Shown here: positions 2,997 to 63,324 of the stretch, in pieces | Position numbering within the stretch: position 1 is the stretch's first letter | Layout of the letters: the number at the start of each line of letters is the position of its first letter | Origin: Candidatus Micrarchaeia archaeon | GTDB taxonomy: Archaea; Micrarchaeota; Micrarchaeia; CABMEP01 | Assembly: GCA_038881595.1 (NCBI GenBank) | Contig: JAVZPM010000002.1 | Location: forward strand, 59,254-123,253 | DNA: 64,000 nt | Direction of reading: 5' to 3' | Notes under the pieces: generated by a model | Seen by the model: only the letters and a program-made list of their open reading frames with translations | Told to the model about the DNA's origin: nothing | The model's database searches: none | Made by a program: the position numbers and the translations under genes

Positions 2997-3010
2997 CTTT
3001 TAATGTTTAA

Positions 3011-3083
3011 TAGCCCCGACCGGATTCGAACCGGTGTCTCGGGCTCCAAAGGCCCGCATACTTGACCGCTATACGACGGGGCT
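3011..3083 (-). tRNA. tRNA-Gln (anticodon UUG), no intron
   Basis: Reverse complement folds as a 73-nt cloverleaf: acceptor AGCCCCG/CGGGGCT, anticodon stem CGGGC/GCCCG, loop CTTTGGA, T-loop TTCGAAT; CCA not encoded. Confidence 0.85.
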
Positions 3084-3128
3084 ATACAATTATTTATAGC
3101 TAATCAAAATTTTAAATACTTGCTTATT

Positions 3129-36306: not shown

Positions 36307-36486
36307 GGGCCAGTAGCTCAGAGGTAGAGCGCTTCGTTCGCATAAACTTTCTTAGAAAGAGAGTTTGATCAAGGAATTTTCTAAGAAACTCTTTATCAAA
36401 TAGTTTCATCAAAATAAGTGATTGAACTTTCCTAACATGAAAGTAGTAAAGTTTCGGAAAACGAAGAGGTCGCGAGTTCGAATCTC
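36307..36486 (+). tRNA. tRNA-Ala (anticodon CGC) with an approximately 108-nt intron at the canonical 37/38 position
   Basis: Exon 1 36307-36342 (GGGCCAG...CTTCG TTCGCA), exon 2 36451-36486 (A CGAAG...CTGGTCC A); G3:U70 Ala identity pair; T-loop TTCGAAT. Confidence 0.8.
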
Positions 36487-36528
36487 GCCTGGTCCATAAT
36501 TAGTATATAATCAATTAGAGAGGTTAAC

Positions 36529-45676: not shown

Positions 45677-45787
45677 GGCCGCAGAGGGGAATCGAACCCC
45701 TGCTTGGAGGTTTCTGCATTTTTGATGAAACTTTCTTTTAGAAAGTTTCTCCACAGCCTCCCGTCCTACCATTAGACGACCGCGGCC
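45677..45787 (-). tRNA. tRNA-His (anticodon GUG) with an encoded G-1 and an approximately 38-nt intron in the anticodon loop
   Basis: Reverse complement: G-1 + GCCGCGG acceptor, anticodon stem GGAGG/CCTCC, loop CTGTGG|intron|A, T-arm AGGGG TTCGATT CCCCT, discriminator C. Confidence 0.75.
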
Positions 45788-60038: not shown

Positions 60039-60106
60039 AAATATTGTATTAGTAAGGGAGTTGTTTTTAATTCTTTTTTTACATATTATTTTCATTATTA
60101 TTTGAT

Positions 60107-60213
60107 GCCCCTGTAGCTCAGCTTGGATAGAGCGACTGTCAGACTTAACTTGTTGTTTTGTCTGGTCGAACCTCCTAAGCAGTAGGTCGAGGGTTCAAAT
60201 CCCTCCGGGGGCG
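60107..60213 (+). tRNA. tRNA, probably Arg (anticodon CCU), with a 32-nt intron at a non-canonical position (32/33)
   Basis: Acceptor GCCCCTG/CGGGGGC, D-arm GCTC...GAGC, anticodon stem ACTGT/GCAGT, T-arm GAGGG TTCAAAT CCCTC; a canonical loop (CTCCTAA) forms only if 60141-60172 is spliced out. Confidence 0.6.
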
Positions 60214-60277
60214 CTAAAAACCCCTTTTATTTAAATTCTACAGAATAAGATAATTATTTAAATATTTCCGAATATAT

Positions 60278-63003: not shown

Positions 63004-63115
63004 CCCACCGTAGCTCAATCTGGCAGAGCATCTCGCTGTAGTCCAGCCTGTCAGATCCTCTGACAGTCGTTTTGTAGAAACGAGAGGGTTGCTGGTTCAA
63101 ATCCGGCCGGTGGGA
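63004..63115 (+). tRNA. tRNA-Tyr (anticodon GUA) with an approximately 38-nt intron at 37/38
   Basis: Acceptor CCCACCG/CGGTGGG (C1:G72), anticodon stem TCTCG/CGAGA, loop CTGTAG|intron|A, T-arm GCTGG TTCAAAT CCGGC. Confidence 0.75.
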
Positions 63116-63129
63116 CTTGAAAAAAATGC

Positions 63130-63239
63130 GCTTGGGTGGTGTAGAACCTTGTTGCGCAGGTTCTGCGCACATGGTGCACAGTGGTCTAGCATTGCGGCCT
63201 GTCACGCCGCCGACCCGGGTTCGAATCCCGGCCCAGGCG
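63130..63239 (+). tRNA. tRNA-Asp (anticodon GUC) with an approximately 37-nt intron in the D-loop
   Basis: Exon 1 GCTTGGGTGGTGTAG, exon 2 TGGTCTAGCAT T GCGGC CTGTCAC GCCGC...CCGGG TTCGAAT CCCGG CCCAGGC G; the mature 73-nt cloverleaf requires removing 63145-63181. Confidence 0.65.
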
Positions 63240-63324
63240 CTTTTATATTCATTTTTATATTCTTATTTTTATAAATAAGAATAATTAAATTTAAGAATAA
63301 CTAAATTAAGTCATTTTCATTAAC

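Follow-up and report, generated by a model that had tools for sequence, protein, structure and literature searches.

Positions 60107-60213 of the window (the whole 64-kb stretch of DNA analysed here) hold a tRNA-Arg(CCU) gene of an archaeon of the Micrarchaeia (DPANN). The gene is very probably interrupted at 30/31, within the anticodon stem, by a 32-nt intron that is presented in a strict BHB motif and spliced by EndA. The motif was read from the gene itself and recurs in diverged relatives with covariation in one of its helices, and an intron-less allele carries the exon junction expected from excision at 30/31.

The tRNA-Arg(CCU) gene

The Rfam tRNA model RF00005 matched the full span of 60107-60213 on the plus strand with a score of 50.6 bits (gathering cut-off 29 bits) over model positions 1-71. 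Its alignment placed an insertion of about 32 nt in the anticodon arm. ARAGORN did not call the gene in its default no-intron mode; with introns allowed (-i) it reported tRNA-Arg(cct) with a 32-nt intron. The original prediction, which was made from the sequence, had proposed this span, an arginine anticodon CCU in the loop CUCCUAA and an intron of roughly 32 nt at a non-canonical position. The exact span was matched by Rfam, the anticodon and loop were reproduced by ARAGORN and a cloverleaf check, and the Rfam insertion, ARAGORN -i and a BHB scan all confirmed the intron. A tRNA was found, and no predictor gave a 37/38 intron with another anticodon.

The spliced 75-mer was folded by ARAGORN as a complete cloverleaf tRNA-Arg(cct) and also passed the separate cloverleaf check. 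It has a 7-bp acceptor stem, a D arm, a 5-bp anticodon stem and a T arm with UUCAAAU. The anticodon loop is of 7 nt, with U33 present and a purine at position 37. The 5' exon contains the 5' strand of the acceptor, the D arm, G26 and A27 C28 U29 G30. The 3' exon contains C31, the loop CUCCUAA, the 3' strand GCAGU of the anticodon stem, the variable loop AGGUC, the T arm and the 3' strand of the acceptor. Coordinates are collected in Table 1.

An A/T-rich box, TTTTTAATTC, lies upstream of the gene. Its core TTTTTAAT is invariant and the rest near-identical in five orthologous loci, and the adjacent bases vary. The box is probably an archaeal TATA/BRE promoter element. The downstream oligo-T TTTTATTT is a probable transcription stop. 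A fibrillarin gene follows about 400 nt downstream of the tRNA gene.

Table 1. Positions of the tRNA-Arg(CCU) gene, its parts and flanking elements, and of the other tRNA genes of the window (↓, cut predicted from the motif)
Feature	Position	Strand	Basis or remark
Whole tRNA-Arg(CCU) gene	60107-60213	+	107-nt precursor body, 75 nt spliced; Rfam, ARAGORN
A/T-rich box TTTTTAATTC	60064-60073	+	34-43 nt upstream; conserved across orthologous loci
5' exon, tRNA positions 1-30	60107-60138	+	strict BHB scan; end of L215/L222 BLAST block
Helix h, 5' strand GAG (D-stem bases 22-24)	60130-60132	+	pairs with CUC 60172-60174
Helix H (central, 4 bp), 5' strand CGAC (tRNA positions 25-28)	60133-60136	+	pairs with GUCG 60165-60168
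5' bulge UG↓U	60137-60139	+	cut between 60138 and 60139; motif geometry
Intron UCAGACUUAACUUGUUGUUUUGUCUGGUCGAA, 32 nt	60139-60170	+	only cloverleaf-compatible excision with strict hBHBh'
Helix h', 5' strand CAGAC	60140-60144	+	pairs with GUCUG 60160-60164
Helix h', 3' strand GUCUG	60160-60164	+	motif scan, fold, covariation
Helix H, 3' strand GUCG, intronic	60165-60168	+	motif scan; invariant in 16/16 related introns
3' bulge AA↓C	60169-60171	+	cut between 60170 and 60171; motif geometry
3' exon, tRNA positions 31-73	60171-60213	+	motif scan; C31 as in intron-less ortholog L121
Helix h, 3' strand CUC (tRNA positions 32-34)	60172-60174	+	motif scan, fold
Anticodon CCU (reads AGG, arginine)	60174-60176	+	parsed genes, ARAGORN
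Discriminator G73	60213		CCA not encoded
Oligo-T TTTTATTT	60225-60232	+	downstream; read from sequence
tRNA-Gln	3010-3084		only uninterrupted one
tRNA-Ala(CGC)	36307-36496	+	insertion
tRNA-His(GUG)	45677-45787	-	insertion
tRNA-Tyr(GUA)	63004-63115		insertion
tRNA-Asp(GUC)	about 63130-63241	+	insertion

A strict BHB motif in the anticodon arm

Splice sites were located with a strict scan for a helix h, a 3-nt bulge, a 4-bp helix H, a second 3-nt bulge and a helix h', with the cut placed after the second bulge base. A single solution yielded a tRNA, namely excision of the intron at 30/31. The motif belongs to the strict hBHBh' class. It has two opposite 3-nt bulges with exactly 4 bp between them, and its outer helices h and h' comprise 3 and 5 bp, with at least 2 bp taken as the criterion. 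The complementarity between CAGAC and GUCUG that was pointed out in the original prediction is real and, by fold and scan, constitutes helix h' of the splicing motif. The relaxed BHB assigned there gave way to a strict 3-4-3 motif in both the scan and the fold. The relaxed forms HBh', hBH and BHL were rejected because neither outer helix is missing and each bulge has 3 nt. A canonical 37/38 intron was rejected because the whole loop CUCCUAA is contiguous in the 3' exon, and at 32 nt the insertion is too small for a group I/II intron or an intron-encoded C/D RNA.

The unconstrained minimum free energy fold (RNAfold), computed for the whole 107-nt precursor and for the arm alone, reproduced exactly the 3-4-3 motif around 60139-60170. 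When the 32 intron bases were shuffled 20,000 times, 55 shuffles contained any cloverleaf-compatible strict motif and 1 matched the observed quality. In the endonuclease–RNA structures of ARMAN-2 and A. fulgidus, the scissile phosphate lies between the second and third nucleotides of the bulge (PMC12397907). Applied to the strict-BHB tRNA-Ala gene of the window, the rule of cutting after the second bulge base gives exactly 37/38.

Helices h and H draw on bases from both the D stem and the anticodon stem, and the precursor therefore needs a fold other than the cloverleaf. In the predicted precursor, G22-C25, G26 and A27-C28 would pair partly with the intron's 3' end and partly with the beginning of the 3' exon. 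Helix h' would be capped by an intronic hairpin, and the D stem and anticodon stem would be excluded. EndA would then cut both bulges between their second and third bases, at the two positions given in Table 1, and an RNA ligase would join G30 to C31. The 75-nt product is expected to refold into the cloverleaf with the anticodon stem ACUGC/GCAGU and the loop CUCCUAA. We infer these enzyme steps, and splicing in the cell, because archaeal tRNA splicing is established.

Intron states at the orthologous locus

Loci of close fibrillarin homologs were retrieved for comparison with the tRNA-Arg(CCU) gene of the window. The same gene was present in four other MAG loci (L236 and L237, from position 1998; L238, from 432; L240, from 1975). 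They differ only at the base corresponding to 60152 (G/T/A), which is unpaired and lies in the loop of the intron hairpin. The gene of L121 (2542-2616; fibrillarin 87% identical) is intron-less, with the stem AUUGC/GCAAU and hence a C31-G39 pair. That of L125 (1277-1387; fibrillarin 97% identical) carries a different intron of 36 nt at the canonical 37/38 position, and its exon also departs from that of the window at position 47 and through a compensatory change at 28/42. Because their flanks can be aligned, all five loci are orthologous, and three intron states (30/31, 37/38 and none) occur among them. Intron sliding finds no support: the 37/38 intron of L125 showed no convincing sequence similarity to the one at 30/31.

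The history of the locus can be read in more than one way. The anticodon arm, the variable loop and the intron might have been swapped in recently by recombination with another tRNA-Arg allele. This bears on origin only: the 30/31 intron would be a recent arrival at the locus and its splicing mechanism would be unchanged. Such a swap is possible, if somewhat doubtful. It would explain why L125, with a fibrillarin 97% identical and flanks that can be aligned, has a different intron at 37/38, and the exon of L125 resembles that of the more distant L121 at 28/42 and 47. The metagenomic genes with 30/31 introns described below moreover share the ACUGC/GCAGU, AGGUC and GAGGG arm of the window. Nevertheless, just a handful of alleles were seen, and the two introns have no detectable similarity beyond that imposed by the motif.

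A broader proposal, plausible but less likely than not, is that tRNA-Arg introns undergo active turnover in Micrarchaeia and related uncultured archaea, and that the 30/31 intron belongs to this set. It starts from the three intron states of this locus in close relatives and from near-identical contigs that differ by the exact presence or absence of introns. Were it true, gain would be ongoing, by insertion or by gene conversion among tRNA-Arg paralogs with a common 5' half GAGCGACUG. Precise loss would proceed via recombination with spliced tRNA that had been reverse-transcribed, and gain and loss alike would operate on population time scales in a DPANN lineage.

Position of the splice junction

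Three 32-nt excisions leave a legal cloverleaf with the loop CUCCUAA and the anticodon CCU. Excision of 60139-60170 (30/31) gives a complete helix H (4/4), with 3 bp in h and 5 bp in h', and an anticodon stem ACUGC/GCAGU in which all pairs are Watson-Crick. Excision of 60140-60171 (31/32) scores 0/0/0 for H/h/h', and excision of 60141-60172 (32/33) retains 2/4 pairs of H, 1 of h and 1 of h'; both leave the stem ACUGU/GCAGU. The products of excision at 30/31 and 32/33 differ at one base, having C31-G39 (C60171) and U31·G39 (U60139), respectively. The predicted exon junction is ...GAGCGACUG^CCUCCUAAGCAGU... under 30/31 and ...GACUGUCUCCUAAG... (U31) under 32/33.

The original prediction had placed the intron at 32/33. 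In that reading 60141-60172, or equivalently 60140-60171, would be removed from a relaxed motif by a broad-specificity endonuclease, leaving U31·G39 in the stem. The cloverleaf is legal, the anticodon is still CCU, and ε2 endonucleases are able to cut relaxed motifs (PMC3239211). ARAGORN -i likewise put the intron at 31/32, reporting 'actgt-Intron-ctcct'; U31·G39 counts as a legal pair, and ARAGORN has no BHB model. Such an excision is nevertheless very unlikely. Its motif scores (0/0/0 and 2/1/1) compare with 4/3/5 at 30/31, two bases upstream, and relatives of the gene speak against it in three further ways.

Firstly, U31 was found in no intron-less relative. A collection of genomes was scanned with a gapped pattern in which position 31 could be C or T and introns of zero length were permitted. 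Among the matches listed, all 119 intron-less bacterial tRNA-Arg(CCU) genes with the same anticodon arm have C31 (119/119); the matches listed included no archaeal relatives. When metagenomes were scanned with the 5' exon GTAGCTCAGCTTGGATAGAGCGAYTG, 110 stretches were obtained, from which 83 distinct complete genes were parsed by enumeration preferring the fewest introns. The 29 intron-less genes among them have C31-G39 in 26 cases and U31 in none. The remainder comprises 36 distinct genes with a 37/38 intron, 6 with a 30/31 intron only, 5 with both 30/31 and 37/38 introns, 4 with an intron at 28/29 in a relaxed motif without helix h, and 3 that enumeration left unsolved and that were read by hand as 30/31 plus 37/38 with a 27-43 mismatch.

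Secondly, two metagenome contigs provide a natural control. Over 632 bp on the upstream side of the gene and 835 bp on the downstream side, L215 (gene start 2477) and L222 (6276) show 99.4-99.6% identity. The tRNA-Arg(CCU) gene of L215 has a 14-nt intron at 30/31 and a 13-nt intron at 37/38, and that of L222 has neither. L222 reads GAGCGACUGCCUCCUAAGCAGU (GACUG^CCUCCUA^AGCAGU), which is exactly the spliced product predicted for L215 with excision at 30/31. In the BLAST comparison of the two, the 5' alignment block ends after base 32 of the gene, which is G30.

Thirdly, among 16 related introns the equivalent of the 32/33 or ARAGORN placement creates an A31•G39 mismatch in 11, as these introns start with A, and the 30/31 placement gives a Watson-Crick 31-39 pair in every case.

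A family of introns at 30/31

The 16 different introns that follow GAGCGACUG are 13-89 nt long, all end in GUCGAA, and occur in Arg-CCU, Arg-UCU and Arg-UCG genes. Over the first three pairs of h', 33 of 36 cells are paired, compared with 17.6 ± 2.6 when the partners were shuffled, and none of 5000 shuffles reached 33. Sliding the h' partner by one or two columns reduced the number of paired cells to 9-20. The first pair of h' among the longer introns is variously C-G, U-A, A-U or G·U. Covariation is assessable in h' alone, the upper strands of H and h and the first two bases of the 5' bulge being fixed by the search pattern; for these elements the evidence consists of the invariance of the intronic partners GUCG and AA only. 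The same AA↓N 3' bulge ends the canonical tRNA-Ala intron of the window and most of the related tRNA-Arg introns.

That the tRNA-Arg(CCU) gene is instead a pseudogene, broken by a chance insertion and left unspliced, as its absence from the default ARAGORN calls could suggest, is hardly credible: both exons are intact, splicing yields a product with the score of a normal tRNA, the motif quality was reached in 1 of 20,000 shuffles, the gene is kept in five MAG loci with variation in the intron loop only, the same architecture occurs in 16 diverged genes with a covarying h', and the Rfam tRNA model detected no second tRNA-Arg(CCU) gene in the 64-kb window.

Apart from the 30/31 introns, two other arrangements were observed among related tRNA-Arg genes. 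A sister family (L146, L169, L202 and L206, with a truncated member in L218) has its intron two bases further 5', at 28/29, in the form GAGCGAC↓UG...CGCUAA↓AGC. Here H is AGCG/CGCU and h' covaries; no outer helix h is present, and the motif is thus a relaxed HBh'.

The second arrangement is found in L142 (minus strand, start 5813), L148 (minus strand, 4072) and L213 (minus strand, 5726). In these tRNA-Arg genes two mutually exclusive splicing paths are available, both through strict BHB motifs. Removal of a 52/53-nt intron at 37/38 gives the loop UUCCGAA with the anticodon CCG. Removal of a 30/31 intron together with a 17-19-nt intron at 37/38 gives the loop CUUCGGA with the anticodon UCG. Variants with an extra T-loop insert occur in L150, L193, L194 and L216. 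As read from sequence, such a gene might yield two isoacceptors; the second path may also be coincidental, as UUCCG is needed as helix h' of the 30/31 motif as well.

Other tRNA genes in the window

The proteins of the window are listed by NCBI under Candidatus Micrarchaeia archaeon. The window has a G+C content of about 32%, and its tRNA exons are G+C-rich. Six matches to the tRNA model were found, five of which are interrupted (Table 1). The canonical introns of tRNA-Ala, tRNA-His and tRNA-Tyr, read by hand, all end with the 3' bulge AA↓A. In tRNA-Ala(CGC) the canonical intron is of 118 nt (36343-36460) and has a strict motif. A second strict BHB is nested within it at 36358-36437, with h of 6 bp, H formed by UUAG/CUAA and h' of 13 bp. 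The nested motif might mark a second intron inside the first, or an RNA processed from the intron.

In tRNA-Asp(GUC) the 5' part of the D arm contains an insert of 35 nt. The sequence UGGUG is present at both junctions, which makes the site ambiguous between 7/8 and 12/13, and the strict scan found no strict BHB that fits the insert. Among relatives, the tRNA-Asp gene of L124 (6208-6279) is without the insert and that of L125 is interrupted in the same way. Helix h' is poor in both tRNA-His and tRNA-Tyr. From their sequences, the introns of tRNA-Asp, tRNA-His and tRNA-Tyr look relaxed.

Splicing endonuclease

Splicing endonucleases of the α4 and α'2 types require the strict 3-4-3 motif, and those of the (αβ)2 and ε2 types also accept relaxed motifs (PMC3239211, PMC5829648). 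On motif shape alone, the 30/31 intron needs no broad-specificity enzyme because its motif is strict. The original prediction had called for such an enzyme. That part of it does not follow from the motif, but the host lineage is indeed one known for the ε2 enzyme: in ARMAN-2 (Micrarchaeum), 56% of the tRNA genes are disrupted and the ε2 endonuclease cuts both strict and relaxed motifs (PMC3239211).

Using an M. jannaschii query validated against PDB 1a79, no EndA was detected in the 64-kb window; nor was EndA among the best 25 of 92 Pfam families matched by the 65 ORFs of the window. A search seeded with segments of ARMAN-2 EndA, taken from PDB alignments, gave 1404 proteins at E ≤ 1e-10. Nearly all of the best 120 of these are 380-406 aa in length, a length that matches the three-unit EndA of ARMAN-2, and many bear the name Micrarchaeota or Micrarchaeia. 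The EndA of the host MAG was absent from the ten clusters of EndA matches that were checked by accession.

Seven contigs (L131, L141, L143, L144, L160, L208 and L233) were observed to carry a related tRNA-Arg gene together with a single-unit EndA of about 175-190 aa. Their tRNA-Arg genes are intron-less or interrupted at 37/38 only, which fits the relationship published for enzyme and intron types.

Comparison with known systems

The 30/31 site, strict non-canonical introns in Micrarchaeota and differences in intron state between relatives are all already published, and the gene described here reveals no new mechanism. No published description of this tRNA-Arg(CCU) gene or its intron was found, the full catalogues of SPLITSdb and GtRNAdb lying outside the comparison. 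The corrected annotation has an intron at 60139-60170 and C31, and adds a tRNA-Arg of Micrarchaeia to the known 30/31 introns. tRNA finders that have no BHB model miss the gene (ARAGORN default) or missplice it to U31 (ARAGORN -i). Completeness estimates of DPANN MAGs and inferences on codon reading hinge on the correct calling of such genes. The related loci also provide a compact natural series for intron gain and loss, with no intron, an intron at 37/38, at 30/31, at both or at 28/29.

Position 30/31 and the neighbouring 29/30 are catalogued sites of non-canonical introns in Crenarchaeota and Nanoarchaeota (Yoshihisa 2014, PMC4090602), and 30/31 is also where the tRNA-Lys(CUU) of Nanoarchaeum equitans and Staphylothermus is split (PMC4090602). 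The intron of the window shares with the catalogued 30/31 introns its position in the tRNA, a motif of two 3-nt bulges around a 4-bp helix built partly from exon bases, and the enzymes expected to act on it, and in related genes a second intron at 37/38 likewise accompanies it. It differs in its host, a MAG of the Micrarchaeia (DPANN), and in its tRNA, Arg(CCU).

Intron transposition in tRNA genes of Thermoproteales (Fujishima 2010, cited through PMC4090602) and heterogeneous tRNA introns in a natural Caldiarchaeum population (PMC3293823) are further parallels. Orthologous tRNA genes of close relatives differ there in the presence and position of introns, as they do here. The present examples differ in coming from Micrarchaeia and metagenome contigs, and the introns at different sites are without detected similarity, so that transposition is not shown.

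The closest parallel in lineage is ARMAN-2 (Candidatus Micrarchaeum acidiphilum), whose three-unit ε2 splicing endonuclease has been described (Fujishima 2011, PMC3239211; Hirata 2012, PMC3488258) and was studied in complex with RNA in 2025 (PMC12397907). Both belong to the same phylum-level lineage, both have a high fraction of intron-containing tRNA genes (5/6 in the window and 56% in ARMAN-2), and in both strict hBHBh' motifs occur at non-canonical sites. The examples from ARMAN-2 shown in that work (PMC3239211) lie in the T loop, at 53/54 and 59/60, whereas the intron of the window is at 30/31.
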